In this document: one piece after another, positions 1 to 19,302 of the stretch
Layout: each line of letters opens with the position of its first letter
How positions within the stretch are numbered: position 1 is the stretch's first letter
DNA from: a virus
Lineage: Duplodnaviria; Heunggongvirae; Uroviricota; Caudoviricetes
Reading direction: 5' to 3' (one strand)
IMG/VR virus record: IMGVR_UViG_2711768054_000001
Length of the DNA stretch: 28,743 bases
Notes under the pieces: generated by a model
What the model saw: the letters and a program-made list of their open reading frames with translations, nothing else
What the model was told of the DNA's origin: nothing
Databases searched by the model: none
Made by a program: the position numbers and the translations under genes

Positions 1-298
1 CTGTTCAGCAGATTATCAGGCGCAACTGAAGCGGCATAATCTGCGTGGAAGTATGAGCGCAAAAGGTTGCTGCTACGATAATGCCTGCGTGGAAAGCTTC
101 TTTCATTCGCTGAAAGTGGAATGTATCCATGGAGAACACTTTATCAGCCGGGAAATAATGCGGGCAACGGTGTTTAATTATATCGAATGTGATTACAATC
201 GGTGGCGGCGGCACAGTTGGTGTGGCGGCCTCAGTCCGGAACAATTTGAAAACAAGAACCTCGCTTAGGCCTGTGTCCATATTACGTGGGTAGGATCA
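1..298 (+). mobile_element. IS3-family insertion sequence, right end only (left part lies outside the window)
   Basis: Contains the 3-prime end of the transposase orfB (2-268); after the stop the sequence ...cctcgcttaggcctgtgtccatattacgtgggtaggatca ends at 298, matching the IS3 terminal inverted repeat as I remember it (TGATCCTACCCACGTAATATGGACACAGGCCTAAGCGAGG in reverse complement). Confidence 0.8.
2..268 (+). CDS. insF: IS3 transposase OrfB (InsF-like), C-terminal 88 codons, 5-prime partial at window edge
   Basis: Translation from position 2 gives [88 protein letters not shown], which I recognise as the C-terminus of E. coli IS3 InsF (DDE integrase-core end); stop TAG 266-268. Confidence 0.8.
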
Positions 299-419
299 CG
301 CAGGGGTCGGCCCATTTGAGCTTCAGATAGGAACGTTTGAATTCCTTTCACAAAATACATCACATACTGAACGTGAACATACCCACTTTGATCTTAAGGC
401 CAAAAAGTATGCAGGACTA

Positions 420-2138
420 ATGATTTTTAGGGATAGCTTGAGAGTATTTCCTTATGGTCGAGTAGATAATGATTTCTTCCAGATAGAAGAAAGACGTTCA
501 TGGAATGCAGGGCGATATTATTGGTCTAATAGAAGGATTTTTGGTTATATTGGAATTACTCAATCCAGTAATAAAGAGCTGAAAGATAAGTCGGGGAGAG
601 AGGGATTCATAAGAAACCAGGCTGCAAGAGAACTGAAAACTATTATATCTAATTTGTTAACTGAACTTGCTGATAGATTTTTTGGTTCACGTTCTGATGA
701 CCGTAAAGAGCTTTTAGAACAAGTTAAGCGTGAAAAAGAGTTAAGAAAATCTGCTCAACAACAAGCTCGAAAATCAACACAAAAAAGTTTTTCAGAAGCT
801 TTGAAGAATCAGACACCAGTTCTTGATGCTTCCTTGGAGGCTGTTAAAAGGCTGAAAACTAAGCTTGATAAAACTGATGGTTCGTTAGATTTAAACTATC
901 TTAAAATTATAGACAGTGATCTTACAAACTTAGATGCGTTGCGCAGTGAAATTAAAACGCCTATCAAACCTCCAAAACTTGGAATGTATGAAGAGAAATA
1001 TAGAGACTACAGAGATAAATTTAATGAGTTCTCTGCGTATATTCTACAAATGAAGTTAGCAATTAATAAACTTGATTCTGAATTAAATAAACTTGAGCCT
1101 TCATTGTCAGCGAAAAATCACCTTGAAAAAAATCAAGGTATTATTAATTCTAAACTAACTAAGTTTAATAACACGATAGAGGAGAAGATACATTCTCTTT
1201 TAAAAAAATGGGCCGATGAAATAAAGGTTGATCGAAGTGATTATTATGCTAAAACTATATCAGTTGTTGATTCAATAGATAATGATTCACAAATTGAAAA
1301 TGTGTTTAATTTGCTCGATAGTTTATATGTTGAGTCAGTTGATACCCTAACTTTCAAATATCAATCAATAATAAAAGGTCTCGATAGATTATTTGAAGGT
1401 ATAAACTTAGATTCAGCATTCTCATTATCTGAAGAAGAACGCTCATATTTTGAAGAAAAAGCTAAAAGTTTAAACGCGCTTGCACAGTTAGGTATTAGTG
1501 TTGAGATAATATCTCATGAACTTGAAGAAATGGATTCTATGGTAACCAGAGGACTAAACTCTCTTCCTACTTCTGTAAAAGAACACCCTGGTTTTTCATT
1601 GGCGTTAAATGCTCACAGATCGCTTACTCAACAAATACGTTTCTTATCACCTTTGAAAATATCAGGTTATCAATCCAGGCAGAGAATAACTGGAAAAAAT
1701 ATCATGGATTATGTCCTGAAGTTCTTTGGGGAGCGTTTCGAACGGCAACGAATAACTATTGAATTTAGTGAAGAGTTTAAGCAAATCGCAATAACAGATA
1801 TACCATCAAGGATCTATCCTGTTTTTACTAATATTATCAACAATGCAATGTATTGGGTCAGTCTGTCAAATAATAGGCTCATAAAGATTGGTTTTGTGAA
1901 TTCTTTGGTTATCATAGCAAATTCTGGTCCGGCAATTGATACCGATGATATCCCGCGACTATTTGAACTATTTTATAGCAAAAGAGCAAATGGACATGGG
2001 GTAGGTCTGTATCTATGTCGAGAAAACCTTGCTGTTGCACATCATAAAATATGGTATTCAGAACCTGATGAAGGCGATAACTATTTAATAAAAGATGGCG
2101 CTAATTTTGTGATCCAGTTCAATGGAGTGGAGTTCTAA
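420..2138 (+). CDS. Histidine-kinase-like ATPase (DHp + HATPase_c), apparently 5-prime truncated by the IS3 insertion
   Basis: ORF of 572 aa. Putative H-box ISVEIISHELEEMDSM, N-box NIINNAMYW and G-box GHGVGLYLCRENLA near the C-terminus; the N-terminal 330 aa are K/E-rich and look coiled-coil. The reading frame stays open upstream from 420 back to 294, right at the IS3 end, and there is no convincing RBS before the ATG at 420. GC content is visibly low. Confidence 0.55.
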   Translation: MIFRDSLRVFPYGRVDNDFFQIEERRSWNAGRYYWSNRRIFGYIGITQSSNKELKDKSGREGFIRNQAARELKTIISNLLTELADRFFGSRSDDRKELLEQVKREKELRKSAQQQARKSTQKSFSEALKNQTPVLDASLEAVKRLKTKLDKTDGSLDLNYLKIIDSDLTNLDALRSEIKTPIKPPKLGMYEEKYRDYRDKFNEFSAYILQMKLAINKLDSELNKLEPSLSAKNHLEKNQGIINSKLTKFNNTIEEKIHSLLKKWADEIKVDRSDYYAKTISVVDSIDNDSQIENVFNLLDSLYVESVDTLTFKYQSIIKGLDRLFEGINLDSAFSLSEEERSYFEEKAKSLNALAQLGISVEIISHELEEMDSMVTRGLNSLPTSVKEHPGFSLALNAHRSLTQQIRFLSPLKISGYQSRQRITGKNIMDYVLKFFGERFERQRITIEFSEEFKQIAITDIPSRIYPVFTNIINNAMYWVSLSNNRLIKIGFVNSLVIIANSGPAIDTDDIPRLFELFYSKRANGHGVGLYLCRENLAVAHHKIWYSEPDEGDNYLIKDGANFVIQFNGVEF

Positions 2139-2139
2139 T

Positions 2140-3888
2140 ATGACAGTGGCAAATTATAATTCTCTTGTCCAGAAAACTTTCTGCGAAAATGCAATTCGTT
2201 CCGTTGTCATGATTGATGACGATTTTCTGACGTATTCTGAATCAATCAGGGCGTTGAATAACGAAGTTGATTTAGACTACAACAAAATTGACTCATCTAA
2301 ACGAGCCGCTACTCTTGAGAGCTTTTTTCAATCTAAAAATATGATTTGTGATGTTGACAATGGTTCTGTTAATTTCGATGTGGATCGGATTAGAAAATCA
2401 GATCTTATTATTGTAGATTATCATCTTGATAATAATGCACCTGATAAAACACTTAAACTATTACAAGATTTGAAAGACTCCGATCATTTAAATATGGTTG
2501 TAATATATACTAGAGAGAATTTAGAAACGGTTTGGATGCAGATATCATCGACTCTCAAAGGTGCTCTGGATATCAACAGCTTGATCATTGACTACGATAA
2601 TGAAGATGTCCAAAGTTATTGGGAAGACGTTGTATTACCGAACTTAAATGATAATGGTAATAAAGCTCTCACAAGAGATGAAACAATAGCCTATATTAAA
2701 GACAGTAAGCCTTGTAGAAGAATTAAAAGATTAATACATGATGATGCTGTGTTGGAGGATCAAAAGGATAAAAACTTCATTGCAAAAATGATTGCAGAAT
2801 ATGCTGTGTCTAGAAATGCAATTATTTCTAGCAACACATCTGGCAATGTCATTCGGGGTGATGAAAGCGGAGTAAAATGGATTCAATGTGGTAATATCTT
2901 TGTCTCCCTATTTCATAAGGTTCAAGATGATCATGAAAACGATGGAGATAGGATTTGGCAAACTCTCAATGATTCTCTCATTGAATGGAAACCATCTTAT
3001 TATCAGTTAATAAAATCTGAAATTCAGAATGCAATCGAAGCTGAGGCTTTATCTTTTGTAAATCATTTGGCTAACGATCATTACGGTCAAGCTGCGTGGT
3101 TAAATGAGATATTAAAATCAGACTCGCCTGATATTAGATGTAGAAATATTGACTTTGTATTTGGTAATTTATCAGAAGAGCTTTATCAAAGACTTAAAAA
3201 TAATAATACGCTGGATGAATTTATCAAAAGTGTTTTTGATAGCTATTCAAATGAATACGCTAACAGCGGAGTTGCTGCATTGCTCCAATATTGCTCTTCA
3301 AAAATGGATCTGCCATCAAATAATGATACTTATCACGAAATGTATCATGCTTTAAATATGAATTTGTCTTCAAAGAATTTTGAAGATGGTCATATTTCTA
3401 CTGGCACTATTTTCTTTGATACAGAGTCGAACAAATGGTATTTATGTGTATCTGCGGCATGTGATTTGGTTCCTACTCAGGGTAACGACCCTCACCATGT
3501 AAGATTAAGTCCGCACAGGCTCATTAAAGTTCTGGAGCTTTTTAACGCCAGTCAGAGTAAAGCATTGCCATTTGCTGAACATTCGAAATATATATATGTA
3601 ATGCATAAAAATCAAAGAAAATATCTCTCTATTTTCGAAGGGGATAAAACGCTTCCTGTTGTTGATTATATGGTGGTGTTGAATCATGGAACAACAGTTG
3701 ATGGCGAAGAAAAAAATATTATTTCTGCCGTGTTTTTAAGTAATATGGATGGCAACGTGCAAAATGTTCCTGTCCGACTCAAACTTAAATCTCAACTGAG
3801 AACTGGTTATGCAGAAAGATATCAGGCTATAGCGTCTCAGTATAGCTCAAGGATTGGTGTGGATTATGTATCAATGATGCTACCATAA
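2140..3888 (+). CDS. Receiver (REC) domain protein with a ~450-aa C-terminal domain of unknown function
   Basis: N-terminus carries the response-regulator receiver signature: VVMIDDDF (acidic pair), LIIVDYHLD (putative phospho-acceptor Asp), MVVIYTRE (conserved Thr). RBS GGAGTGGAG at 2124-2132; ATG at 2140 lies one base after the upstream stop, suggesting translational coupling. AT-rich. No DNA-binding output domain recognisable. Confidence 0.6.
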   Translation: MTVANYNSLVQKTFCENAIRSVVMIDDDFLTYSESIRALNNEVDLDYNKIDSSKRAATLESFFQSKNMICDVDNGSVNFDVDRIRKSDLIIVDYHLDNNAPDKTLKLLQDLKDSDHLNMVVIYTRENLETVWMQISSTLKGALDINSLIIDYDNEDVQSYWEDVVLPNLNDNGNKALTRDETIAYIKDSKPCRRIKRLIHDDAVLEDQKDKNFIAKMIAEYAVSRNAIISSNTSGNVIRGDESGVKWIQCGNIFVSLFHKVQDDHENDGDRIWQTLNDSLIEWKPSYYQLIKSEIQNAIEAEALSFVNHLANDHYGQAAWLNEILKSDSPDIRCRNIDFVFGNLSEELYQRLKNNNTLDEFIKSVFDSYSNEYANSGVAALLQYCSSKMDLPSNNDTYHEMYHALNMNLSSKNFEDGHISTGTIFFDTESNKWYLCVSAACDLVPTQGNDPHHVRLSPHRLIKVLELFNASQSKALPFAEHSKYIYVMHKNQRKYLSIFEGDKTLPVVDYMVVLNHGTTVDGEEKNIISAVFLSNMDGNVQNVPVRLKLKSQLRTGYAERYQAIASQYSSRIGVDYVSMMLP

Positions 3889-3900
3889 TTATTATATTTT

Positions 3901-3929
3901 AGGCGTGGTGATTTTTTTTCGCCATGCCT
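3901..3929. terminator. Possible bidirectional terminator hairpin between convergent genes
   Basis: Imperfect inverted repeat aggcgtgg (3901-3908) / ccatgcct (3922-3929) flanking a T-run, located between the 3-prime ends of the receiver gene (+) and the membrane-protein gene (-). Confidence 0.35.
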
Positions 3930-3959
3930 ATTTTATATTTATCATCACAATGATGTTGT

Positions 3960-4376
3960 TTATTTTTGTTTAAGTCTTCTAAGCTTCATGCATTCTAATG
4001 AGAATAATAATAGAGTTGTGCTGTATATAAAGCCAGAGTTAGTTAATAACTTTAAATTTAATGCTTCAGGATTTTCACTGAGAAAGTGAAAGGCATAAAC
4101 TAAGTATACAGCTAAAGTAGCCGTTCCAATTGTTGGTCCAATATCGCCTTGATCATGAGGTTCAAGGTTTACATTGAACTTGAAGATTAGCCATTCAAAT
4201 CCCCAAGTAAAAAAAACAACTAATATCATGGCTGCGAATAATTTCGCGATGTTATCTGCTGATGGATTCATCAGAACAGATTGTTTCTGAAAAAATTCAC
4301 AAAGTGAGAGTCCGAAAAAAATAAAAAAAAGTGGTCTGGAACTAAATTTTTCAAAAACTTTGAATAGGGTTTCCAT
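3960..4376 (-). CDS. Small multi-pass membrane protein (138 aa), unknown function
   Basis: ATG at 4376 preceded on the minus strand by RBS AAGGTAAAG; translation shows about four hydrophobic helices (LFFIFFGLSL, AAMILVVFFTWGF, TATLAVYLVYAF, FIYSTTLLLF); AT-rich. Confidence 0.5.
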   Translation of the reverse strand: METLFKVFEKFSSRPLFFIFFGLSLCEFFQKQSVLMNPSADNIAKLFAAMILVVFFTWGFEWLIFKFNVNLEPHDQGDIGPTIGTATLAVYLVYAFHFLSENPEALNLKLLTNSGFIYSTTLLLFSLECMKLRRLKQK

Positions 4377-4414
4377 TTTCTTTACCTTCAGGATTATATT
4401 AGCTATTCTGATAC

Positions 4415-5644
4415 TTAGGCTACCAGAGCATTTGATCTTTGAGCTTGAACGTAATCACTCCACCATTGCATCAAACTCTGTCGCTCTATCAGATATTCTG
4501 CACGATTGTATGCTGCGATAATTTCATCTTTTTTCGAGTGGGCAAGCGCTGCCTCAAGAACTTCAGCTCTGAATTTACCAGACTCCTCTGCCGCTGTTCG
4601 TGCAATAGAACGCATACCGTGAGCTACAAGCTCGCCTCCGAACCCCATTCGGATGATAGCTGCGTTGGCTGTTTGTTCATGCATATGATTAAGAGGCGCT
4701 TTTATGCTGGGGAAAACCCATTCTCTATGCCCACTTATTGATTTCATTAATTCAAGGATGCGCAAAGCTTCTTTACTCAAAGGAACTTTGTGAAGCTTTT
4801 TCATTTTCATGAAATCAGCAGGAATGTTCCAAATGCTGTTGGTTGTATCAATATCAGACCACCTTGCGCGAACGGCTTCACCCGGACGAACCCATGTCAA
4901 CAATTGCCATTCAATTAGCATACGTGTTTCCAACCGGATTGACGCATTCGTCAAAGATTCCATAAACCTTGGCAATTCGCTTGGGGGAAGGGCAGGCATA
5001 TTTTGCTTTTTTGGTTTACTGAATCTTTGACCAAGGTTGTCAGCCGGGTTGAACTCAATAAGTTCTTCAGTAGCTGCCCACCGGAAGATTTCATTCAGAC
5101 GTGAAATGATACGGCGTAGAGTTTCCAATACGCCTCGTTGCTCAATAGGATCAAGGTGTTGTTTTAAGAGCTTAGGTCGGATCTCATTGATAGGGACATT
5201 ACCCAGACCGGGAAAGACATTTCTCTCTAAGCTGCGCCAGATGTCTGCTGCATGGTCTTGTGAGATACCTGATGTCTTTACCTTCTCATCTAACCATTTC
5301 CGCGCTACGGCTTGGAGAGTGTGCTCAGTAGCACTCTTTAATGCCTTCGCCTTATCGTTGTTATGGATTTGGGGATCAACACCATTTGCCAGAAAGGAGA
5401 GATATTCATCACGTAAGGCTCTGGCTCTTGCAAGGGTAAGGTGAGGATATGTCCCAAGGCTCATTTTGGTTCTTTTCTTGCTCACTGGTACTGCATACCT
5501 GAAATACCAATTTTTCTTGCCTCCTTTCGCCAAAGGAGCGATTCGTAGAATCAGACCATCACCGTCAAACAAGTTGATTTCTTTATCGGCTGGCTTGGTG
5601 CTTTTGATTTCAGTGTCAGTGAGCTTCTTAGCGATTTTTGCCAT
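4415..5644 (-). CDS. int: P4/CP4-57-family tyrosine integrase
   Basis: Translation MAKIAKKLTDTEIKSTKPADKEINLFDGDGLILRIAPLAKGGKKNWYFRY... has the typical P4-type integrase N-terminus, and the C-terminal half contains the R...H..R...Y catalytic region (HGMRSIARTAAEE, EAALAHS, Y in AAYNRAEY). I take the ATG at 5644 as the start; the ORF-track start at 5686 would add a GPK/GPT-repeat extension encoded by GGACCC DNA repeats. Confidence 0.85.
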   Translation of the reverse strand: MAKIAKKLTDTEIKSTKPADKEINLFDGDGLILRIAPLAKGGKKNWYFRYAVPVSKKRTKMSLGTYPHLTLARARALRDEYLSFLANGVDPQIHNNDKAKALKSATEHTLQAVARKWLDEKVKTSGISQDHAADIWRSLERNVFPGLGNVPINEIRPKLLKQHLDPIEQRGVLETLRRIISRLNEIFRWAATEELIEFNPADNLGQRFSKPKKQNMPALPPSELPRFMESLTNASIRLETRMLIEWQLLTWVRPGEAVRARWSDIDTTNSIWNIPADFMKMKKLHKVPLSKEALRILELMKSISGHREWVFPSIKAPLNHMHEQTANAAIIRMGFGGELVAHGMRSIARTAAEESGKFRAEVLEAALAHSKKDEIIAAYNRAEYLIERQSLMQWWSDYVQAQRSNALVA

Positions 5645-5809
5645 TTTGGGACCCTCGGTTTTTGGACCCTTCTTAGTGGGTCCCATTCAGGGTGCCATAA
5701 CTCGTAGTTCTCAGCAATTCTCACTGGACGACAATAGACGTAAAAAAGCCCGCAGAGCTTGTGCTGTGTGGGCTTAGTAGACTTCATTGAACTTCAAACA
5801 ACTAAAAAG

Positions 5810-5854
5810 TGGTGGAGCTGGCGGGAGTTGAACCCGCGTCCGAAATTCCTACAT
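5810..5854 (-). other. ssrA: 3-prime-terminal 45 nt of ssrA (tmRNA), an att-site copy, not a complete gene
   Basis: Reverse complement of 5810-5854 reads ATGTAGGAATTTCGGACGCGGGTTCAACTCCCGCCAGCTCCACCA, identical to the 3-prime end (T-arm plus acceptor CCA) of E. coli tmRNA as I recall it. Similarity stops abruptly at 5855; the upstream sequence is AT-rich and unrelated to ssrA. Confidence 0.8.
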
Positions 5855-5970
5855 ACCATTTTGACTATAATAAAAACATATATTTATGTTTTAAAACAGT
5901 ACGTTAGTGTTATTTTGTTTTTGTCGGTTTTACACATTTTTAATGCTCTGCCGCCAAGTTGTCGCCATTG

Positions 5971-6954
5971 CTAATTCCTATCAGCAGGTAGAATTGCTGG
6001 GTAGAGCTTAGAGCAATCATTGCCATAGTCAGGGATAAAGTCCCATAGCCCTTTTGGCGTTTGGAAGACCTCAGGGCTTAAGCCAATCAGCATATAAACA
6101 TGAACTAACAGCTCGCGCAATCCAGTGACCATTTGCTTTATTTGTTTTTCATCAGAGAAAGAAGTGGTGAAGGGTTTTTCTTCAATGGAGTCAAAAAGAA
6201 TAAACTCATGTTTTTCATATCGATAGTCGATCCCTAATTCTCTGCAAAGTTGGATAATATTGATTTCGAGCATTTGAAGGGAAATCACTTGGATATCATA
6301 AGAAGTCTCTTTGTTGTAACAGCTTTTAATAGCTTTGTTGATATTCTTATAATAATCTTGAACTCTACCCATAAATAATGAACTTATTTCTTTGCTATAG
6401 CCTTCTTCAATAGAGGATTTTGTAAAAATATTCATGTAAAGAATATAAGGGTGAGAAATGGAAAGTTCTATATATTTTTTTCCATCATCGTGTTCGGTAA
6501 ACTCTCTACTAACGATAAATGAAGGGACGGTTTTAAAAATATCGGCATAACTCTTCTGGTGGGCATAAAATGAATCAGATTTATTTTTTGCTTTTACCAG
6601 CTCTATTTGATGCTCTGTCCTTGAAAGCTGCGTCTCTGTTTGAATGGTCCTGTGAATATTCTTAACTATAGCTCCAAGAGGTACTGAACTGGCTAGCAGC
6701 ATTAGAGGGAATTTACTGATTTCGTAAAAGCGAGTATAGCCGTGGGCACTTAACACCGGGACCTTGCCCCACCATGCGAAAATCCCAAAATAAAAGAATG
6801 ATAATACTGGTATTCCGATTGATAACCAGAATAATTTCTGTTTTATAAGGTTTTGTTCATTTAATAAATACCACTTGTATTTATATGTTAAATACAATAT
6901 GTATATTAACATTACAACATAGAACATAATGCCAATTGATGAATAAAGGGTCAT
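5971..6954 (-). CDS. Membrane protein of unknown function (327 aa); AT-rich cargo gene downstream of the P2-type integrase
   Basis: N-terminal hydrophobic helices (IGIMFYVVMLIYILYL, LFWLSIGIPVLSFFYFGIFAWWG, LMLLASSVPLGAIV) followed by a ~220-aa soluble domain. The start ATG (6954-6952, minus strand) overlaps the int stop (6953-6951) as ATGA. GC content is clearly lower than the flanking phage genes. Confidence 0.6.
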   Translation of the reverse strand: MTLYSSIGIMFYVVMLIYILYLTYKYKWYLLNEQNLIKQKLFWLSIGIPVLSFFYFGIFAWWGKVPVLSAHGYTRFYEISKFPLMLLASSVPLGAIVKNIHRTIQTETQLSRTEHQIELVKAKNKSDSFYAHQKSYADIFKTVPSFIVSREFTEHDDGKKYIELSISHPYILYMNIFTKSSIEEGYSKEISSLFMGRVQDYYKNINKAIKSCYNKETSYDIQVISLQMLEINIIQLCRELGIDYRYEKHEFILFDSIEEKPFTTSFSDEKQIKQMVTGLRELLVHVYMLIGLSPEVFQTPKGLWDFIPDYGNDCSKLYPAILPADRN

Positions 6955-7979
6955 GCTTTTTTCCAGTCTAATTTGTAAAGTGGATTTTTTGTTACAGCAT
7001 CTTCCAAGTGATCAGGGGCAAAGTGAGCGTAAACCATCGTCATTTTTATATCAGCATGGCCCAGAATATCGCGCAGTACCAGTATATTTCCGCCGTTCAT
7101 CATAAAATGGCTGGCGAATGTATGGCGCAGTACGTGGGTGCACTGGCCCTCTGGCAGTTCGATACCGGCTCGCTTTACTGCACGCTCAAAGGATTTTCTG
7201 CATGGGGTAAATAATCTCCCCCTGTTTTTAGGTAGTTCGTCATACAGTTCTTGAGATATTGGAACGGTTCGGTTTTTTTTACCTTTGGTCTTGGTATAAG
7301 TAATGCGATATTTTGATAACTGATGCCCTTGCAGGTTTTCTGCTTCACTCCATCGGGCACCAGTTGCTAGGCATATTTTTGCAATCATCAACAGACTGGG
7401 ACTCTGAGAATCAGCACAGGCATCCAGTAGGCGTTTAATTTCTTCCGGGGTCAGGAATGCTAGTTCACCCTCAGCGATTTTAAATGTTGGCAGCCCGACG
7501 AGAGGATTTGGTGCTGACCAGTGGCCTAGTTTTTTCAATGTGCCGAAAACCGATGATAGGTTACGTTGCTCAAGATTCACCGTGCGTGGTTTTACTGGCG
7601 ACATTAGTGTGCCGTCTTCGTTACGAAGGTCACCTTTTAACCGTGCTTCGCGGTATTTCGTAAAGTCTCCGGCTGTCAGTTCTGAGGCGATGGGGTCGCC
7701 TAGACCATTACAGATAATTCTAAGTTTCGCCATGAGGCGCTTGGGGTCTGCGAGTGTCTGACCATACAGGGAATACCAAAGCTCAATTAACTCTGATAGG
7801 CGTCGCCGATCATCCTTTTCACCCAACCACGGTTTTTTATTCACTTCTTCCATTGTGAAGCTTTCAAACGCAATGGCTTCGCCTTTCGTGGCAAATTGCT
7901 TACGCACGCGCTTGCCATTGCGTCCATTGGGATAGCACTCACACAACCATTTTCCGTTCGGCTGTTTTCTGATGGTCAT
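6951..7979 (-). CDS. int: P2-type tyrosine integrase
   Basis: 342 aa, MTIRKQPNGKWLCECYPNGRNGKRVRKQFATKGEAIAFE...; C-terminus has ARWSE...HVLRHTFASHFMMNGGNILVLRDILGHADIKMTMVYAH (R-H-R-Y motifs). Size and sequence resemble P2/186 Int. Confidence 0.9.
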   Translation of the reverse strand: MTIRKQPNGKWLCECYPNGRNGKRVRKQFATKGEAIAFESFTMEEVNKKPWLGEKDDRRRLSELIELWYSLYGQTLADPKRLMAKLRIICNGLGDPIASELTAGDFTKYREARLKGDLRNEDGTLMSPVKPRTVNLEQRNLSSVFGTLKKLGHWSAPNPLVGLPTFKIAEGELAFLTPEEIKRLLDACADSQSPSLLMIAKICLATGARWSEAENLQGHQLSKYRITYTKTKGKKNRTVPISQELYDELPKNRGRLFTPCRKSFERAVKRAGIELPEGQCTHVLRHTFASHFMMNGGNILVLRDILGHADIKMTMVYAHFAPDHLEDAVTKNPLYKLDWKKA

Positions 7980-7980
7980 A

Positions 7981-8613
7981 TCAAAGGCTCTTAATGATTT
8001 TCAGTGCGCGGCCTACTACCTCAATGTCATCCAGGCCGCACTCAAACGATGAATCATCCTGATGCACTACTAATTTGTTTCCCGGGAGTCGAGTCAATTT
8101 AACAATGCTTTTTATCCCGTCGATATCGACTAACCACATACCATTTACTAGTGGTGTTTGGTTGCGATCTATTAAATAAGAATCACCAGAAGTAGTTACC
8201 AGCAGTAGGTTGCTTGAGTTTGAGGGGAGTATGCTGCTATCAATGATTGCTTTTCCAGCATCGATCAATAAACCACCGTTGAGAGTCGCCTTGTCAATTT
8301 CAGGAGATACTAGTTCAGAAAGAGGTATAACCTTGCTGGAGTTCACGGAATTGATATTTTTTTTGGGTTCAATGTTTGAACCTGGCTCCCCCTGTCCGGT
8401 GGTTAGCCACAGTAAAGAAACTCCTGTTTCCAAGGCGCACTGAATCACCCACTCTGCAGGAAAACTATCTCTTAAGTATCTGTTTGCCATGGTACTTTTT
8501 GATGCGCCTAAGTGATCGCAAAGTTGCTGTCTGGACTTGAAATCATAGGCTGCCATTAGTCTATGGATAGCCTCTCTTCCCCCTGTATTCTCTCCAGCCT
8601 TTACCTGTATCAT
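7981..8613 (-). CDS. CI-like immunity repressor (HTH N-terminal domain), 186-type
   Basis: 210 aa; divergent from the early operon and adjacent to int; N-terminal helix-turn-helix region (SKSTMANRYLRDSFPAEWVIQCALETGVSLLWLTTGQG); no obvious LexA-like Ser-Lys autocleavage motif. Confidence 0.7.
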   Translation of the reverse strand: MIQVKAGENTGGREAIHRLMAAYDFKSRQQLCDHLGASKSTMANRYLRDSFPAEWVIQCALETGVSLLWLTTGQGEPGSNIEPKKNINSVNSSKVIPLSELVSPEIDKATLNGGLLIDAGKAIIDSSILPSNSSNLLLVTTSGDSYLIDRNQTPLVNGMWLVDIDGIKSIVKLTRLPGNKLVVHQDDSSFECGLDDIEVVGRALKIIKSL

Positions 8614-8625
8614 TTTTTAATCCTG

Positions 8626-8677
8626 TTGACGTATCAAATATTGGATCGTAGTATCTCGATGTATCAAATGTTGAATC
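8626..8677 (+). promoter_or_regulatory. Early rightward promoter with direct-repeat operator candidates
   Basis: -35 TTGACG (8626-8631), 17-nt spacer, -10 TAGTAT (8649-8654). Two 17-bp direct repeats gtatcaaatattggatc (8631-8647) and gtatcaaatgttgaatc (8661-8677), 30 bp apart, overlap the promoter; a third GTATCA half-copy sits at 8606-8611. Confidence 0.45.
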
Positions 8678-8732
8678 AAGTAAAACGAGATAAAACGACG
8701 TAAACCAAACCTTAATCGGGAGATACTGCACT

Positions 8733-8975
8733 ATGAGCACTGATATTTCAATTCGTGTACCAAAAGAGATGGCTACGCCTGCAGAGTTCGCGGAATGGGA
8801 AGGTATCTCCCGCGGCTCCGTGTATCAAAAAATTCACCATGGTCAGCTTGCTAAATACATGGTCAAGAAAGAAAAAAACAAAGGCCGCGTAAGCCTGCGT
8901 TATTTAATGTACAAAACCGATCAGGTCCGTGAATCCCTCGGTCATTCCAACTTCCGCGTCATTGTTGGTAAGTAA
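8733..8975 (+). CDS. Cox/Apl-like small DNA-binding regulator/excisionase
   Basis: 80 aa; first gene of the rightward early operon, opposite the repressor; RBS GGGAGA; position matches cox (P2) / apl (186). Confidence 0.55.
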   Translation: MSTDISIRVPKEMATPAEFAEWEGISRGSVYQKIHHGQLAKYMVKKEKNKGRVSLRYLMYKTDQVRESLGHSNFRVIVGK

Positions 8976-9007
8976 GTTCAATTATGAGAACTTTCTAAGG
9001 GGGTAGC

Positions 9008-9517
9008 ATGTTTGATTATAAGATTTCCAAACACCCGCATTTTGATGAAGCCTGTAGAGCTTTTGCACTTCGTCACAATATGGCGAAGCTGGCAGAACGT
9101 GCAGGAATGAATGTCCAGACTTTGCGAAACAAACTCAACCCAGATCAACCGCATCAGCTAAATGCGCCAGAAATCTGGCTGCTTACCGATCTGACTGAAG
9201 ATTCAACGCTGGTAGACGGTTTTCTGGCACAGATTCATTGTCTGCCATGTGTACCGATTAATGAGGTGGCAAAAGAGAAACTGCCACATTACGTCATGAG
9301 TGCAACCGCAGAGATCGGGCGTGTTGCTGCAGGTGCGGTATCTGGCGATGTAAAAACCAGTGCTGGTCGTCGTGATGCTATCAGCAGCATTAACTCTGTA
9401 ACACGACTGATGGCGTTGGCTGCTGTTTCATTGCAGGCCCGTTTACAGGCTAACCCTGCGATGGCGAGTGCAGTTGATACCGTGACTGGCCTCGGTGCTT
9501 CATTCGGTTTGCTGTGA
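9008..9517 (+). CDS. cII: CII-like phage regulatory protein
   Basis: 169 aa, the same length as 186 CII; strong RBS AAGGGGG; position after cox/apl. Confidence 0.65.
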   Translation: MFDYKISKHPHFDEACRAFALRHNMAKLAERAGMNVQTLRNKLNPDQPHQLNAPEIWLLTDLTEDSTLVDGFLAQIHCLPCVPINEVAKEKLPHYVMSATAEIGRVAAGAVSGDVKTSAGRRDAISSINSVTRLMALAAVSLQARLQANPAMASAVDTVTGLGASFGLL

Positions 9518-9524
9518 GGTACTT

Positions 9525-9821
9525 ATGCTGACGAAAGAACCATCATTTGCATCGCTGCTGGTAAAGCAAAGCCCGGCAATGCACTACGGTCACGGCTGGA
9601 TCATGGGTGAGGATGGAAAACGCTGGCATCCATGTCATTCACAAGATGAATTGCTGTCTGAATTGACCACGAGGAAACGGAGAAAGTCAAAATGTATGCA
9701 GCGGAAAGTGAAGTGGTTTATCAGTTTCGTTACAGAGGGGAGAGTTATTCAGTACCTGAAGATGATTTGCTCTGTTGTTATCCGTCGTTGTCGGGCGATG
9801 GCAGTTACTTTTTCACGCTAA
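9525..9821 (+). CDS. Small phage protein (possibly Fil-like); 3-prime end uncertain
   Basis: ATG at 9525; the first ~57 codons (MLTKEPSFASLLVKQSPAMHYGHGWIMGEDGKRWHPCHSQDELLSELTTRKRRKSK) look protein-like; the frame then reads through without a stop into the next gene with low-complexity translation. Confidence 0.35.
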   Translation: MLTKEPSFASLLVKQSPAMHYGHGWIMGEDGKRWHPCHSQDELLSELTTRKRRKSKCMQRKVKWFISFVTEGRVIQYLKMICSVVIRRCRAMAVTFSR

Positions 9822-9916
9822 AAGATGGGACGTTTTTACGGGGAGAGCAGGTTAAAGAGACGATACGAAAAAATGTATCTCCTCTTGAACGTTACCGTAA
9901 TAACAAACAACGATAG
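9692..9916 (+). CDS. Hypothetical small phage protein (74 aa)
   Basis: RBS GGAG at 9679-9682, ATG at 9692; the translation looks like a globular protein. Confidence 0.55.
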   Translation: MYAAESEVVYQFRYRGESYSVPEDDLLCCYPSLSGDGSYFFTLKDGTFLRGEQVKETIRKNVSPLERYRNNKQR

Positions 9917-9938
9917 TTGCGTTTTGGGGATATGAATT

Positions 9939-10280
9939 ATGGCAATTAATGGCGCTGCGGCGACTGTTCCATTAAGCCCCGGTGAACGCCTGAATGGACT
10001 TAATCACATTGCGGAGCTAAGGGCGAAAGTTTTTGGCCTGAATATTGAGTCAGAGCTTGAGCGGTTTATTAAAGATATGCGTGATCCACGGGATATCAAT
10101 AACGAACAAAATAAACGGGCACTGGCTGCTATATTCTTTATGGCAAAAATTCCAGCTGAACGTCATAGCATCAGCATTAATGAGCTGACCACTGACGAAA
10201 AGCGGGAGTTGATTAAAGCAATGAATCATTTTCGTGCAGTGGTGAGCTTATTTCCCAGACGGCTAACCATGCCGAATTAA
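9939..10280 (+). CDS. Hypothetical phage protein (113 aa)
   Basis: ORF in the early operon with an upstream GGGGA RBS; no recognisable motif. Confidence 0.55.
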   Translation: MAINGAAATVPLSPGERLNGLNHIAELRAKVFGLNIESELERFIKDMRDPRDINNEQNKRALAAIFFMAKIPAERHSISINELTTDEKRELIKAMNHFRAVVSLFPRRLTMPN

Positions 10281-10347
10281 CCAACTAATGAAATTAATGG
10301 CGTAAACCCGCCGGGTATCCCTTTATCTAAATTCAGGAGAATTGATT

Positions 10348-10581
10348 ATGCGTAATATTGAAACCCTCACGACTAAAACCGGACCGGATGATGCAGGGCT
10401 TAATATTTTACTGACAGAGGCTCGTCTGGAAGAACGCCGGGCAAGGGCTGAAGCAATGGCAGCTCGCCTTGATAGCCTGGCGTGTCATATCACATCCCGC
10501 CAGCTAAACCACGTCGAAGCAGCAGAACTACTGCGTGTAACTGCTGAAGCAATCCAGAACGAAGCGCAGGAGATCCACTAA
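10348..10581 (+). CDS. Hypothetical phage protein (77 aa)
   Basis: RBS AGGAGA at 10334-10339, ATG at 10348; stop overlaps the next start (TAATG). Confidence 0.6.
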   Translation: MRNIETLTTKTGPDDAGLNILLTEARLEERRARAEAMAARLDSLACHITSRQLNHVEAAELLRVTAEAIQNEAQEIH

Positions 10582-10808
10582 TGGCTGATGCAATGGATCT
10601 CGTACAGCAGCGCGTTGAAGAAGAACGCCAGCGCCATATCCGTGCTGCCCGTGCCAAAACGCCGGGCGTGTCCCGCGTGCTTTGTATTGAGTGTGAAGCG
10701 CCAATTCCGCCAGCACGCCGCCGCGCCATTCCAGGTGTGCAGCTTTGCATTACCTGTCAGGAAATCGCAGAGCTGAAAGGCAAACATTACAACGGAGGTG
10801 CTGTATGA
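10581..10808 (+). CDS. TraR/DksA-family C4 zinc-finger protein
   Basis: 75 aa with CIECEAPIPPARRRAIPGVQLCITCQ, a C-x2-C...C-x2-C zinc finger typical of phage TraR/DksA-like proteins. Confidence 0.75.
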   Translation: MADAMDLVQQRVEEERQRHIRAARAKTPGVSRVLCIECEAPIPPARRRAIPGVQLCITCQEIAELKGKHYNGGAV

Positions 10809-11662
10809 GCACCATCCTGAAATGGGCGGGAAATAAAACCGCCATTATGTCCGAACTGAAAAAGCATCTTCCTGCTGGCCCGCGACTGGTTGAACCTTTC
10901 GCGGGTTCCTGTGCAGTGATGATGGAGACGGAGTACCCCAGCTATCTTGTTGCGGATATTAATCCTGATTTAATCAACCTCTATAAAAAGGTTGCTGCTG
11001 ATTGTGAATCATTTATATCTCGCGCCAGAGTTTTATTTGAGATCGCAAACAGGGAGGTAGCTTATTACAACATAAGGCAGGAGTTTAATTACTCAACTGA
11101 AATTACTGATTTCATGAAAGCGGTATATTTCCTGTATCTCAATCGTCACGGTTACCGTGGTTTATGTCGCTATAACAAGAGCGGGCATTTCAACATTCCC
11201 TACGGTAATTATAAAAATCCGTATTTCCCTGAAAAAGAAATTCGCGCATTTGCAGAAAAAGCCCAGCGAGCAACGTTTATCTGCGCCAGCTTTGATGAAA
11301 CGCTGGCGATGTTGAAGGCGGGGGATGTGGTGTATTGCGATCCGCCGTATGACGGTACGTTTTCCGGCTATCACACTGATGGTTTCACTGAAGATGACCA
11401 GTATCACCTGGCATCCGTTCTTGAACATCGGTCATCAGAAGGACATCCGGTCATTGTTTCTAACAGTGACACATCCCTGATCCGTTCGCTGTATCGCAAT
11501 TTTACTCACCACTATATCAAGGTAAAACGCAGCATCGGTGTGGCAGCTGGCGAGGGTAAATCAGCAACAGAAATCATTGCTGTTTCCGGGCCGCGCTGCT
11601 GGTTGGGATTTGATTATTCGCGTGGCGTGGATAGTTCTGCCGTGTACGGAGTGCGTGCATGA
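10805..11662 (+). CDS. dam: DNA adenine (N6) methyltransferase, Dam-like
   Basis: Motif I PFAGSCAV and catalytic DPPY ([12 protein letters not shown]); ATGA overlap with the upstream stop; RBS GGAGGTG. Confidence 0.85.
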
Positions 11663-14073
11663 GCCATGCTGATATGAACAACTGCAGCGGCTTTAACGAG
11701 GCCGCCGCAGCATTCTCATGGAACAGCCCGAAAAAGGCTATTAACCCTTATCTGGACCCGGCGGAAGTTGCGCCGGTTTCTGCGCTTTCAAACCTGATCA
11801 CTCTGTACGCTGCCGATAACGAGCAGGAACAACTGCGCCGCGAGGCACTGAGTGATCAGGTCTGGGAGCGTTATTTCTTTAATGAATCCCGTGATCCTGT
11901 CCAACGCGAAATGGAGCAGGATAAGCTCATTAGCCGGGCAAAGCTGGCGCATGAGCAGCAGCGTTTTAATCCGGACATGGTCATACTGGCGGACGTTAAA
12001 GCCCAGCCCTCCCATATCAGCAAGCCGCTGATGCAACGTATTGAATACTTCAGCAGCCTGGGCAGGCCAAAGGCTTATTCCCGCTATTTGCGTGAGACGA
12101 TTAAGCCATGTCTGGAACGACTGGAGCATGTACGCGACAGTCAGCTATCCACTTCTTTTCGCTTTATGGCAAGCCATGAAGGGCTGGACGGCCTGCTGAT
12201 CCTGCCTGAAATGAGTCAGGATCAGGTGAAACGCCTGTCTACTCTTGTCGCTGCGCATATGAGCATGTGTCTTGATGCCGCTTGTGGTGATTTGTACGCC
12301 ACCGATGATGTTAAGCCAGAAGAAATCCGCAAGACATGGGAAAAGGTGGCAGCAGAAACCCTGCGACTGGATGTCATACCGCCTGCGTTTGAGCAACTCC
12401 GCCGGAAAAGAAACCGCCGTAAACCCGTACCCTATGAACTCATTCCGGGTTCGCTGGCGCGTATGTTGTGCGCCGACTGGTGGTATCGGAAATTATGGAA
12501 GATGCGTTGCGAATGGCGGGAAGAGCAGTTGCGTGCTGTTTGCCTGGTCAGCAAAAAAGCATCTCCCTATGTCAGCTATGAAGCCGTGATGCATAAACGT
12601 GAGCAGCGCCGTAAGTCGCTGGAGTTTTTCCGTTCTCATGAACTGGTGAACGAAGACGGCGATACGCTGGATATGGAGGACGTGGTAAACGCCAGTAGTA
12701 GCAACCCGGCGCATCGCCGCAATGAGATGATGGCATGTGTTAAAGGTCTGGAGCTTATCGCGGAAATGCGCGGTGACTGCGCCGTTTTCTACACCATCAC
12801 CTGTCCGTCACGTTTCCATTCCACGCTAAATAACGGCAGGCCCAACCCAACCTGGACAAATGCGACGGTAAGACAAAGCAGTGATTATCTGGTCGGCATG
12901 TTTGCTGCATTTCGTAAGGCGATGTACAAAGCCGGATTGCGCTGGTATGGCGTGCGGGTGGCTGAGCCGCATCATGACGGTACAGTTCACTGGCACCTGT
13001 TGTGTTTTATGCGCAAAAAAGATCGCCGCGCCATTACTGCTTTGTTGCGTAAGTTTGCCATTCGTGAAGACCGCGAGGAGCTGGGTAATAACACAGGACC
13101 ACGCTTTAAGTCTGAGCTGATAAACCCGCGCAAAGGTACGCCAACAAGCTACATCGCGAAATACATCAGTAAGAACATTGACGGGCGTGGTCTGGCTGGC
13201 GAGATCAGCAAGGAAACGGGTAAATCCCTGCGTGATAACGCTGAATACGTTAATGCCTGGGCGTCTCTTCATCGTGTTCAGCAATTCCGCTTCTTTGGCA
13301 TTCCGGGGCGTCAGGCTTACCGTGAACTGCGATTGCTGGCTGGTCAGGCGGCAAGGCAACAGGGGGACAAAAAAGCAGGTGCGGCGGTACTGGATAACCC
13401 GCGCATTGATGCCATCCTGGCTGCTGCTGATGCTGGTTGTTTTGCCACCTACATCATGAAGCAGGGCGGCGTACTGGTTCCCCGCAAATATCACCTCATC
13501 AGAACCGCTTATGAAATCAACGAAGAGCCGACCGCCTATGGCGATCACGGCATTCGTATTTATGGCATCTGGTCACCCATTGCAGAGGGCAAGATCTGCA
13601 CTCATGCAGTGAAGTGGAAAATGGTTCGTAAGGCCGTTGACGTTCAGGAGGCGGCAGCCGACCAGGGCGCTTGCGCCCCTTGGACTCGTGGCAATAACTG
13701 TCCCCTTGCTGAAAATTTGAACCAACAGGAGAAAGATAAATCAGCTGATGGGGACCCCAGAACGGACATTACCAGCATGGATGACAAGGAGTTGCACGAT
13801 TACCTGCACAGTATGAGCAAAAAAGAGCGCCGGGAACTGGCAGCAAGGTTACGCCTGGTGAAACCGAAACGGCGTAAAGACTACAAACAGCGAATTACAG
13901 ACCATCAGCGACTGCAGCTCGTGTATGAGCTGAAGTCCAGAGGATTTGATGGCAGCGAGAAAGAGGTCGATTTACTCCTTCGCGGAGGCAGTATTCCGTC
14001 AGGAGCAGGCCTGCGTATCTTCTATCGGAACCAGCGTTTGCAGGAAGATGATCAGTGGCGGAACCTGTATTAA
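11659..14073 (+). CDS. A: Replication initiation endonuclease (P2 gpA-like rolling-circle initiator)
   Basis: 804 aa; HUH-type motif TVHWHLLCF and tyrosine motif [12 protein letters not shown]; size and position match P2/186 gene A. Confidence 0.9.
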
Positions 14074-14165
14074 TTACGCGGGTTAACAATTCGTGCTCTT
14101 AATAATACCAGGCATATCAGGCTGATGAACGTAAAAAATCGTTTTACATCAGTAAGATTATTATA

Positions 14166-14185
14166 TACTGTAAATATAAACAGTG
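14166..14185. promoter_or_regulatory. LexA (SOS) box
   Basis: TACTGTAAATATAAACAGTG fits the CTGT-N8-ACAG consensus; overlaps a -10-like TATACT (14164-14169), with a -35-like TTTACA at 14143-14148. Confidence 0.6.
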
Positions 14186-14226
14186 GTTATGCATACAGCA
14201 TTGCGTGTGGTGTCATAGGAGGAAAG

Positions 14227-14415
14227 ATGCAGGACTATTTTTTGGAGTCTTTGAAGCTCCAGCGCATTGATTTTTTTCTTAAGCTTGTAGCGGCTAGTGA
14301 GTGTAGTGATGAAGAGAAGGGGCTGGCTCTGCAGTGGGTTTCTGAATTGACTGATGAACTCATGGCAAAAATCAGAACCCACGAATACAACCGCTCAATG
14401 GATGTCATCAGCTGA
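14227..14415 (+). CDS. Small protein (62 aa), first gene of the putative SOS-controlled operon (possible antirepressor N-terminal part)
   Basis: RBS AGGAGG immediately upstream of the ATG at 14227; about 40 bp downstream of the LexA box. Confidence 0.45.
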   Translation: MQDYFLESLKLQRIDFFLKLVAASECSDEEKGLALQWVSELTDELMAKIRTHEYNRSMDVIS

Positions 14416-14425
14416 GGTGACTTTT

Positions 14426-14659
14426 ATGCGCATTGAAATAATGATCGATAAAGAGCAGAAGATTAGCCAGTCTACCCTGGACGCCCTTGAATCCGAGCTT
14501 TACCGCAATCTGCGCCCCCTGTATCCCAAAACGGTAATTCGCATTCGCAAAGGTAGCTCTAACGGTGTGGAACTAACCGGACTGCAACTGGACGAAGAAA
14601 GAAAACAAGTGATGAAAATTATGCAGAAGGTGTGGGAAGACGACAGCTGGCTGCATTAA
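14426..14659 (+). CDS. DinI-family protein (Tum-like C-terminal module)
   Basis: 77 aa, MRIEIMIDKEQKISQSTLDALESELYRNLRPLYPKTVIRIRKGSSNGVELTGLQLDEERKQVMKIMQKVWEDDSWLH, resembles E. coli DinI in length and profile (MRIEV..., acidic C-terminus ending W-x-x-D-D-W); RBS GAGGTG. Confidence 0.75.
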   Translation: MRIEIMIDKEQKISQSTLDALESELYRNLRPLYPKTVIRIRKGSSNGVELTGLQLDEERKQVMKIMQKVWEDDSWLH

Positions 14660-14794
14660 GAAACGTTGCTGGCGTCTGAACTTGCTTCTGGCGTCAGCAA
14701 GGTTGAACAACGAGCCCTTGCGAGGCGTTAGCTCTGTAGTGCATGTCTATGCCGCATGAGATCGCATGATCGTTTGAGGATCGTTTTTGCTAAG

Positions 14795-14819
14795 GCCCGC
14801 CAGAACTGGCGGGCTTTTG
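14795..14819 (+). terminator. Rho-independent terminator
   Basis: Perfect 9-bp stem gcccgccag / ctggcgggc with a 2-nt loop, followed by TTTTG. Confidence 0.55.
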
Positions 14820-14863
14820 CGTAGATCATGCAGGTGCATGAAAACCACTACATAAAGCGGGCA

Positions 14864-14882
14864 GGCGTGGCGGGGATACGAG
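14864..14882. other. Candidate cos (cohesive end) site of the P2/186-like phage
   Basis: GGCGTGGCGGGGATACGAG matches 14 of 19 positions of the P2 cohesive end GGCGAGGCGGGGAAAGCAC, and the first 13 nt match the 186 cos as I recall it; it lies between the replication/tum region and the portal gene, where cos is expected. Confidence 0.45.
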
Positions 14883-14980
14883 CGCGCGTATTTGGTCGTT
14901 ACTTAGCTTTTTTTTATCAATAGATTAAGCTAACTTAAGTCTTTTTAGGAAAAAATATTTTTTCGTGATGAGGTAGAAAG

Positions 14981-19238: not shown

Positions 19239-19284
19239 GGCACAAACCTACAACCTTGAATGAAGGCTTTCCCCGCCTGTGGTT

Positions 19285-19302
19285 TGTGTGGTTGTCGGTA
19301 CA
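19285..19302. promoter_or_regulatory. TGT-N12-ACA dyad, candidate Ogr/Delta-type late-activator site in the P/O divergent promoter region
   Basis: tgtgtggttgtcggtaca = TGT + 12 nt + ACA in the 142-bp intergenic region between P (-) and O (+). Confidence 0.4.

Follow-up and report, generated by a model that had tools for sequence, protein, structure and literature searches.

The 28,743-nt stretch of viral DNA analysed here (the window) carries 2 different tyrosine integrase genes with a 45-nt copy of the 3′ end of ssrA, the tmRNA gene, between them, and we consider it very probable that this layout arose when an ssrA-targeting phage of the P2 family integrated beside an older remnant island, leaving the 45-mer as an orphan att copy at the junction. 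Tandem integration at ssrA had been proposed in an earlier note on this DNA, and the proposal is borne out by an empty-site genome, a complete lysogen, and the attP of a free phage. Integration of phages and islands at ssrA has long been documented, and the layout is a common, ordinary, and already known one. Occupancy of the tmRNA gene by multiple elements is reportedly the subject of Williams's 2003 "Traffic at the tmRNA gene". The locus has been described as a multi-element hotspot, with P4-like satellites among its reported elements (PMC10121019); SopEPhi and Fels-2 are known to integrate in ssrA (PMC3448106), and P2-type integrases restore the ssrA 3′ end, with P4-type islands sitting downstream (PMC10107115 Table 1).

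The reverse complement of window positions 5810-5854, ATGTAGGAATTTCGGACGCGGGTTCAACTCCCGCCAGCTCCACCA, matches exactly the final 45 nt of ssrA as annotated in K-12 (363 nt), a gene whose sequence is identical in strains 07-4299 and 503025. The match stops at base 46, where the window has T and ssrA has G, and the 45-mer occurs only once within the window, with 0 matches expected from 100 shuffles. A search of the window with ARAGORN found 0 tRNA or tmRNA genes and an Rfam scan at gathering thresholds gave 0 matches, so the remainder of ssrA is absent from the window: there is no full-length tmRNA with its tRNA-like domain and tag reading frame, and only the last 45 of the 363 nt are kept. The earlier note had taken this minus-strand segment as a perfect copy of the tmRNA end, missing the rest of the gene, and had accordingly called it an att duplicate rather than the gene. 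The first 2 points hold on these results, and the third holds because the same 45-mer stands at both ends of the prophage in a related genome and also in the attP of a free phage, as described below.

The closely related complete genome L002 has, in this order, smpB, an intact ssrA, a P2-like prophage, the 45-mer, the P4-type integrase island, IS3, and a truncated ygaQ. The 45-mer is present twice in this genome, in copies 34.3 kb apart, one of which is the 3′ end of the intact ssrA; a prophage of roughly 34 kb is bracketed by the intact gene and the orphan copy, and the identity between its 2 ends is exactly 45 nt. The corresponding empty site is found in strain 503025 (L004), where the same island with its P4-type integrase follows ssrA directly. 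Window positions 1-5854 are 99.93% identical to L004, the identity ends exactly at 5854, and this natural empty site is identical to the predicted attB. In the free phage Cartapus, the same 45-mer forms part of attP, between an ORF on the ogr side and the cargo and int genes, and the flanks of this attP match both prophage ends; the SopEPhi record is bounded at both ends by an identical 45-mer. All of this is direct observation, from the sequence identities and the unoccupied site in L004 to the repeats at both ends of the L002 prophage and the free-phage attP. Two boundaries coincide at positions 5810-5854: they form the recombinant att site that closes the P2-family prophage on its integrase side, and they also mark the edge, on the side of ssrA, of the resident island with the P4-type integrase. 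P2-family phages of the SopEPhi/Fels-2 group have this 45-mer as their attachment core, and the length of the repeat is dictated by the attP of the P2-family phage.

The far end of the prophage and the intact ssrA fall beyond window position 28743, and since the window stops short of that end, we infer the second 45-mer and the intact gene from relatives that are approximately 96-97% identical (window 16513-28743 is 97.7% identical to L002). The junction was found in 88 of 5426 complete E. coli genomes and the island in 537, and a match to ssrA is kept in all 5426. In record LN997803, the same island follows a lambdoid Stx prophage, and in strain 33-6 the same phage Int and CI proteins lie beside a different mobilizable element with a P4-type integrase, so the 2 elements combine independently.

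On the prophage side of the core, the integrase-proximal attP arm occupies positions 5855-5970, and its flank matches the attP flanks of Cartapus and SopEPhi. Within it, TGCCGCCA (5949-5956) and TGTCGCCA (5960-5967) form a pair of putative arm-type repeats spaced 11 bp apart, and the same motif pairs stand at equivalent positions in Cartapus, SopEPhi, and L002; the density of the motif over the whole window is 0.24 per kb. The motif fits tgccGCCActt, the consensus reported for arm sites of the 186 type (PMC3448106), and we predict that Int binds TGCCGCCA and TGTCGCCA as arm-type repeats beside the core. The ORF list places a cargo ORF of 327 aa (5971-6954, minus strand) between this core and int; its start overlaps the int stop (ATGA). 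It has no match in Pfam or PADLOC and nothing specific in NCBIfam, and it matches only phrog_17460, which is of unknown function. The ssrA-targeting integrase itself (6951-7979, minus strand, 342 aa) is a P2-family tyrosine integrase with the Pfam domains Int_N and Phage_integrase. It is 93% identical to the Int of Cartapus and 39% identical to that of P2, the DNA of the int region matches SopEPhi, Fels-2, RE2010, and SEN8, and the SopEPhi homolog is annotated as similar to 186 Int.

A CI-type immunity repressor of the prophage lies at 7981-8613 (minus strand), with the Pfam domains Phage_CI_repr and Phage_CI_C and a matching RefSeq annotation. The remaining P2-family prophage extends from 8733 to the window end at 28743 (plus strand) and, according to the RefSeq annotation of near-identical genomes, encodes an apl/cox-like protein, CII, Dam, replication endonuclease A, a PD-T7-1 cargo gene, portal, terminase, and capsid, together with lysis, tail, and baseplate genes. 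The gene order, read from that annotation of near-identical DNA with the ORFs present in the window, is of the P2 type: CI, apl/cox, CII, A, Q, P, O, N, M, L, lysis, tail.

SopEPhi, Fels-2 (Felsduovirus), and Cartapus (Elveevirus) are, like the window prophage, P2-family phages that integrate at the 3′ end of ssrA. SopEPhi and Cartapus resemble it in the identical 45-bp att core, in sharing the same pairs of putative arm-type repeats, and in the order ogr, small ORF, attP, cargo, int, CI, apl. The cargo locus between att and int, however, is variable, with the 327-aa ORF in the window, a RES-domain gene in Cartapus, and a YopC-like gene in SopEPhi, and other E. coli carry a dCTP deaminase or gapS1 there. 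The cargo between gpA and gpQ also differs, the window carrying a homolog of PD-T7-1, and the int-CI DNA is only about 82% identical to that of SopEPhi and Fels-2.

On the island side, positions 5645-5809 (minus strand) are the native spacer downstream of ssrA, identical in L004, where it directly follows the intact gene; a terminator-like hairpin within it (arms 5746-5758 and 5763-5775) is followed by a T-run on the minus strand. The spacer measures 165 nt, the separation of about 165 bp between repeat and P4-type integrase that had been noted earlier, and the distance to intact ssrA in L004 is the same. The integrase (4415-5644, minus strand, 409 aa) reads away from the target and was assigned to the P4-type (IntA/CP4-57-like) tyrosine integrases by Pfam, NCBIfam, and pairwise identity. 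The architecture taken as diagnostic of this type is DUF4102/Arm-DNA-bind_3 with a central and a catalytic domain, and the protein has Arm-DNA-bind_3, Phage_int_M, and Phage_integrase. It scores 440.6 bits against NCBIfam PRK09692 (cut-off 434), is 34% identical to P4 Int and 48% identical to K-12 IntA, and is 100% identical to the protein annotated "intA, prophage CP4-57 integrase" in LN997803. Just upstream of the gene, 3 TGGGACCC-like repeats (5644-5655, 5659-5670, and, inverted, 5678-5685) may be arm-type sites. The 2 tyrosine integrases had been placed on the same strand, at 4415-5644 and 6951-7979, and both the ORFs and the RefSeq CDS boundaries, taken from a genome 100% identical over window 4300-8100, agree with that placement.

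The cargo of the island (299-4376), part of the same four-gene island that directly follows ssrA in L004, consists of a HEF_HK/HATPase_c kinase-like protein (420-2138, plus strand) and a Response_reg_2 protein (2140-3888, plus strand), both assigned by Pfam, and an ORF of 138 aa (3960-4376, minus strand). PADLOC gave no match for this cargo, and NCBIfam gave nothing specific for it. The island is truncated by the 3′ end of an IS3 element (1-298, plus strand), recognized from its sequence, with a terminal inverted repeat ending near 298, and from the annotation of L002 and L004. The alignment of the window to these 2 genomes starts inside the IS3 transposase gene, and in related genomes the opposite side of IS3 adjoins a 5′-truncated ygaQ pseudogene.

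To the left of the P4-type integrase, no distal copy resembling the ssrA 3′ end or the CP4-57 attR was found on the correct strand in the window, L002, or L004 (to gabP). The searches comprised exact patterns and patterns with ≤3 mismatches, substitution scans of the last 14-30 nt of ssrA, blastn-short with a word size of 7, and scans tolerating indels, which also covered the CP4-57 attR form; they gave chance-level matches only and recovered the K-12 CP4-57 attR as a positive control. Looking for a further 45-mer and an intact ssrA, which the earlier note had suggested as a way of defining the boundaries of both elements, delimits the prophage in L002, with both sequences at its ends, and leaves the island with no distal copy in L002 or L004. 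The left element is a remnant CP4-57-like island and not a satellite. Its distal att was probably lost to an IS3-associated deletion, and the older island is most likely immobile; with no distal att and with IS3 abutting the cargo, separate excision of the left element is not to be expected.

CP4-57 of K-12 occupies the same chromosomal site, likewise with a P4-type integrase reading away approximately 165-200 bp downstream of ssrA and of the same family, above the PRK09692 cut-off. Its Int, however, is the K-12 protein that is only 48% identical to the island Int, its cargo is entirely different and larger (about 25 genes versus 3 in the window island), and it retains an imperfect attR of 17 nt, whereas the window island has none and ends at IS3. 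A comparable tandem layout is provided by the remnant integrative element beside the Stx prophage CP-1639 (AJ304858) and by the phi467 record. In these, too, a phage lies between ssrA and an older, intA-bearing remnant with a partial ssrA copy at the junction, and the island in the phi467 record is the same one as in the window, with a 100% identical IntA. The difference lies in the phage that came in, which there is a lambdoid Stx phage whose block of ssrA identity is shorter and in the window is a P2-family phage with a block of 45 bp. Satellite P4 resembles the window island in integrase subfamily only (the same domain architecture at 34% identity), and its attP core and target differ from the window site.

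If these comparisons are put together, a temperate phage of the SopEPhi, Fels-2, and Cartapus kind would have entered the 3′ end of the E. coli tmRNA gene by site-specific recombination through a tyrosine integrase resembling the 186 type. The attP of this phage would have carried the 45-bp block identical to the ssrA 3′ end, so that an intact ssrA would have been rebuilt at the far end and an orphan copy left at the integrase-proximal end. The site would by then have been occupied by a small CP4-57-like island, a P4-type integrase with its 3 cargo genes, immediately downstream of ssrA, and it is for this reason that the orphan copy would now lie between 2 integrase genes. Which element arrived first, how recombination took place, which repeats serve as arm sites, and that the remnant can no longer move are all interpretations of sequence, and the activity of both integrases is predicted.

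The same stretch could be regarded as one composite element with 2 integrases, the 45-mer being a relic inside it. The integrase genes share a strand and both lie ≤1.3 kb from the 45-mer, and in the GenBank "phage" record LN997803 the island forms part of the sequence deposited as phage, but the free phages Cartapus and SopEPhi contain or end at the 45-mer without any island, the island is found alone next to ssrA, and the phage is found next to a different island, all of which makes a single element highly improbable. It is equally hard to credit that the 45-mer is the residue of a deleted or rearranged ssrA pseudogene and owes nothing to site-specific recombination. That ssrA is present as a fragment only, with IS elements nearby, would suit such an origin, yet the fragment ends at precisely the same base as the attP identity block of related free phages, and also as the direct repeat found at the opposite end of the prophage in a close relative, where ssrA is intact, and none of the 5426 complete genomes has lost its ssrA match. 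Slightly better placed, though still quite unlikely, is an island that is complete and mobile, with a distal att beyond IS3 and outside the window. Many strains share an intact and identical integrase ORF, and the distal att of CP4-57 is so short and imperfect that such sites are easy to miss. Against this, scans that did recover the K-12 attR found no distal copy left of int in any of the 3 sequences, and the IS3 adjoins the 5′-truncated ygaQ with the K-12 genes ypjA to ileY missing, which points to a deletion. Integration of the P2-family phage beside a remnant island is the reading that we retain.

The earlier note had also seen in the 2 integrases a biologically meaningful pairing of a helper-type phage with a P4-family element, and here the evidence goes the other way. 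A P4-family satellite whose position beside a P2-type helper is functional might be suggested by the P4-type architecture of the island integrase, by its 34% identity to P4 Int, and by the P4-like satellites reported at the tmRNA hotspot (PMC10121019). However, when all 13 P4 proteins were compared with the window by tblastn, Int alone matched, with alpha, delta, sid, psu, epsilon, vis/AlpA, and cI all absent, and blastn of P4 DNA against the window returned int only. Positions 1-5809 hold no cos-like site at ≤4 edits from the 19-nt cohesive end common to P2 and P4; the sole weak cos-like match lies inside the prophage, at 19265-19281. Of the P4-like satellite core genes listed in PMC13586616, the island has a homolog of Int only, and according to the same source integrases alone are not satellite markers. 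The cargo of the island is instead a kinase-like and receiver-like gene pair, no sequence similarity between island and prophage was found, and the island is also seen where no P2 prophage accompanies it and next to a lambdoid Stx phage. A functional satellite and helper pair is thus extremely unlikely and, at the level of sequence, already refuted; "P4-type" here names an integrase subfamily and not a satellite, and a P4-type integrase beside a P2-like prophage does not alone indicate a satellite-helper pair.

The junction matters mainly for correct annotation. Since the 45-mer is the true prophage boundary, the island to its left should be left out of the phage sequence. It is included in one GenBank phage record, and RefSeq wrongly labels the 45-mer an ssrA gene in some genomes.

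Some further readings strike us as doubtful, if rather less remote than the alternatives weighed above: that the integrase of the island is retained for a function, that the cargo serves in defense, or that the 327-aa ORF is a new anti-phage gene. The island integrase is intact in the 3 copies examined (window, L002, and L004), in none of which a distal att was found, and the protein is identical in every carrier examined; with the island present in 537 of the 5426 genomes, it might therefore be retained for function. A retained integrase might act on the last approximately 19 nt of the shared att, capturing or destabilizing incoming ssrA elements. The kinase-like and receiver-like cargo might be an uncharacterized defense system, and the 327-aa ORF, which is translationally coupled to the phage int and lies in the minor att-int hotspot, might represent a new anti-phage gene. 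None of these readings concerns the tandem junction itself. Some carriers of the junction hold a broken prophage, as in WGI31CT, which is 100% identical over window 4300-8100 and diverges before 189 and after 19128, its prophage breaking off inside the terminase gene, with plasmid genes flanking it.

On the minus strand, positions 5810-5854 of the window read ATGTAGGAATTTCGGACGCGGGTTCAACTCCCGCCAGCTCCACCA, exactly the last 45 nt of the 363-nt ssrA gene annotated in E. coli K-12, a gene that is identical in two further complete genomes that we compared. Identity to ssrA covers exactly these 45 nt, with a mismatch at the base next upstream, and the 45-mer occurs once in the window, where shuffling gives an expectation of zero. 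ARAGORN and Rfam found no tmRNA or tRNA gene across the whole window, so the earlier note was right both in assigning this block to the tmRNA 3′ end and in holding that the remainder of ssrA is missing there.

What this block represents is settled by three independent comparisons, with a complete lysogen, an empty site, and the attP of free phages. The lysogen (NZ_CP027462.1, about 96-97% identical to the window) has the order smpB, intact ssrA, P2-like prophage, 45-mer, island with P4-type integrase, IS3, truncated ygaQ, and glaH, with the ogr side of the prophage toward ssrA and its int side toward the 45-mer. It holds the 45-mer exactly twice, at the 3′ end of intact ssrA and as an orphan copy beside the P4-type integrase, and the two sites share those 45 nt and none beyond. 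In the empty site of strain 503025, intact ssrA runs straight into the same spacer, integrase, and three cargo genes; window 1-5854 matches it at 99.93% identity, and the alignment ends with the final base of the 45-mer, at 5854. Phage Cartapus, whose genome is cos-linear, has an identical 45-mer with the small ORF that follows ogr on one side and the cargo-int-CI block on the other; the left flank of this copy matches the DNA downstream of intact ssrA in the lysogen, and the right flank matches the window from 5855 onward. The same 45-mer bounds both ends of the SopEPhi record, and alignments with Fels-2, RE2010, and SEN8 likewise begin at window 5810. On the int side, two arm-type repeats, TGCCGCCA at 5949 and TGTCGCCA at 5960, are spaced 11 bp apart at a distance of about 95-105 nt from the core. 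They fit a published 186-type arm consensus for phages of this group (PMC3448106), and Cartapus, SopEPhi, and the lysogen conserve these pairs at equivalent positions. Together, the lysogen, empty-site, and free-attP comparisons identify the 45-mer as the core att sequence of a P2-family phage that targets ssrA, and the window copy as the recombinant att site at the prophage end nearest int, bearing out its earlier interpretation as an att duplicate at the junction of tandem elements. By analogy with these relatives, the source genome would have its far prophage end and an intact ssrA outside the window.

The two tyrosine integrases previously proposed on the same strand also hold up. Both minus-strand ORFs (4415-5644 and 6951-7979) have the same ends as RefSeq CDSs in a genome 100% identical to window 4300-8100, and the spacing between the first of them and the repeat, put earlier at about 165 bp, is 165 nt. 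The P4-type integrase (4415-5644) has Arm-DNA-bind_3, Phage_int_M, and catalytic domains, scores above the NCBIfam PRK09692 cut-off, and shares 34% identity with P4 Int and 48% with the IntA of CP4-57, a cryptic prophage of K-12. Three TGGGACCC-like motifs, two direct (5644-5655 and 5659-5670) and one inverted (5678-5685), lie within 5644-5685, directly upstream of and overlapping its start codon; possible roles are as arm-type integrase sites or as an int operator, and similar GGGACCA/GGACCA motifs adjoin CP4-57 attR in K-12. The P2-family integrase (6951-7979), with Int_N and catalytic domains, shares 39% identity with P2 Int and 93% with the integrase of Cartapus. To its right follow CI, an apl/cox-like gene, CII, Dam, replication endonuclease A, and portal, terminase, capsid, lysis, and tail genes, and the element right of the 45-mer is a P2-family prophage that extends past the window end.

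This prophage carries cargo at two positions. A 469-aa ORF (14981-16390, plus strand) that strongly matches PD-T7-1, a defence protein (PADLOC E = 1e-196), occupies the classic P2 tin/old hotspot, with replication gene A on one side and the portal gene on the other. Between att and int, a 327-aa ORF (5971-6954, minus strand), which begins with an ATG that shares bases with the phage int stop codon (ATGA), has phrog_17460 (function unknown) as its sole match and no Pfam, PADLOC, or NCBIfam match. Relatives hold other genes here (a RES-domain gene, a dCTP deaminase, gapS1, and a YopC-like gene), and this position is reported to be a minor defence hotspot of P2-like phages (PMC13586616).

A 45-bp stretch of the phage attP is identical to the 3′ end of ssrA, and lysogens have this block at both prophage ends with an ssrA sequence the same as that of non-lysogens. 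From established knowledge of tyrosine integrases and of tRNA/tmRNA-targeting phages, Int acting on core and arm sites would recombine attP with the ssrA 3′ end, and ssrA would be rebuilt by the phage-borne copy; in the lysogen, the rebuilt gene is followed by phage sequence common to the Cartapus attP flank. The displaced native 3′ end would become the orphan copy, keeping its own terminator-like hairpin at 5746-5775. Excision would presumably require Int and the Apl/Cox-like protein and give back the arrangement of strain 503025. In NZ_AP022036.1, RefSeq annotates a 177-nt "ssrA transfer-messenger RNA" at 7511-7687 (corresponding to the window from 5810 onward), covering the orphan 45-mer and adjoining phage DNA and overlapping a CDS; such annotation is present in some genomes and looks like a spurious partial tmRNA call.

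The left element comprises the P4-type integrase, a 138-aa ORF, a Response_reg_2 protein (2140-3888, plus strand), and a HEF_HK/HATPase_c kinase-like protein (420-2138, plus strand), the latter two assigned by domain search. Its limit is the right terminus of an IS3 (1-298), inside which the window starts and which is represented by the C-terminal transposase part and the terminal inverted repeat. In related complete genomes, this IS3 separates the island from a 5′-truncated ygaQ. The genes that lie between CP4-57 and ygaQ in K-12 are absent there, implying that an IS-associated deletion removed the distal part of the island together with ypjA to ileY. CP4-57 in K-12 retains a 17-nt imperfect distal repeat, ACTCCGCCAGCCCACCA, in agreement with the ssrA deletion left by its excision (PMC10107115). 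Searches that recovered this K-12 site found no comparable distal att left of the integrase in the window, the lysogen, or strain 503025, and for this reason the island is a remnant, with int and the int-proximal att intact and the distal att missing; it would be unable to excise because it has no partner site. The element annotated as a "remnant integrative element" beside an ssrA-integrated Stx prophage in AJ304858, with a 92% identical IntA, is of the same kind. HEF_HK/Response_reg_2 two-component-like domains have been linked to restriction-modification and paraMORC systems (bioRxiv 10.1101/2020.08.26.268516; PMC8011034), and the pair, which had no PADLOC match, could be an uncharacterised conflict system carried with the island.

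SopEPhi and Fels-2 have been published as integrating in ssrA (PMC3448106), P2-type integrases that restore the ssrA end and P4-type islands downstream of ssrA have been tabulated (PMC10107115), and the tmRNA locus is a documented hotspot for prophages, satellites, and mobilizable elements (PMC10121019, citing Williams 2003, "Traffic at the tmRNA gene"). The arrangement is already known and common, and the earlier note read it correctly save for its suggestion of a helper phage paired with a P4-family element. That pairing is not supported, and the island is ruled out as a P4 satellite: a homologue in the window was found for just one of the 13 P4 proteins, Int, the island contains no P2/P4 cos-like site, and no similarity was found between island and prophage. 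In a recent survey, P4-like satellites are assigned seven core genes, and integrases by themselves are said to be no marker of them (PMC13586616).

Island and prophage are independent elements. The island stands alone beside ssrA in strain 503025, adjoins P2-family prophages, and also lies beside a lambdoid Stx prophage, where the junction ssrA copy is shorter; in strain 33-6, the same phage Int and CI proteins are found beside a different mobilizable element with a P4-type integrase, whose genes include relaxase, ParB, and AAA plus UvrD. Among 5,426 complete E. coli genomes, 537 have the island and 88 the island/45-mer/P2-flank junction. Within 30706-38594 of the GenBank record of Stx phage phi467 (LN997803.1), the whole island (intA, the 138-aa ORF, the receiver-like gene, and "sasA") is treated as if it belonged to the phage, whose actual limit is marked by the short ssrA copy near 32823-32841. 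In strain WGI31CT (NZ_CM135810.1), which is 100% identical to the window over 4300-8100, the prophage is interrupted inside the terminase gene and plasmid genes (qnrS13, blaTEM-1, tet(A), ParA/ParG, IncF RepA, and Hok) flank island and prophage at 1-16000 and 34800-43801, an arrangement that reflects either IS-mediated plasmid integration or a scaffolding artefact.
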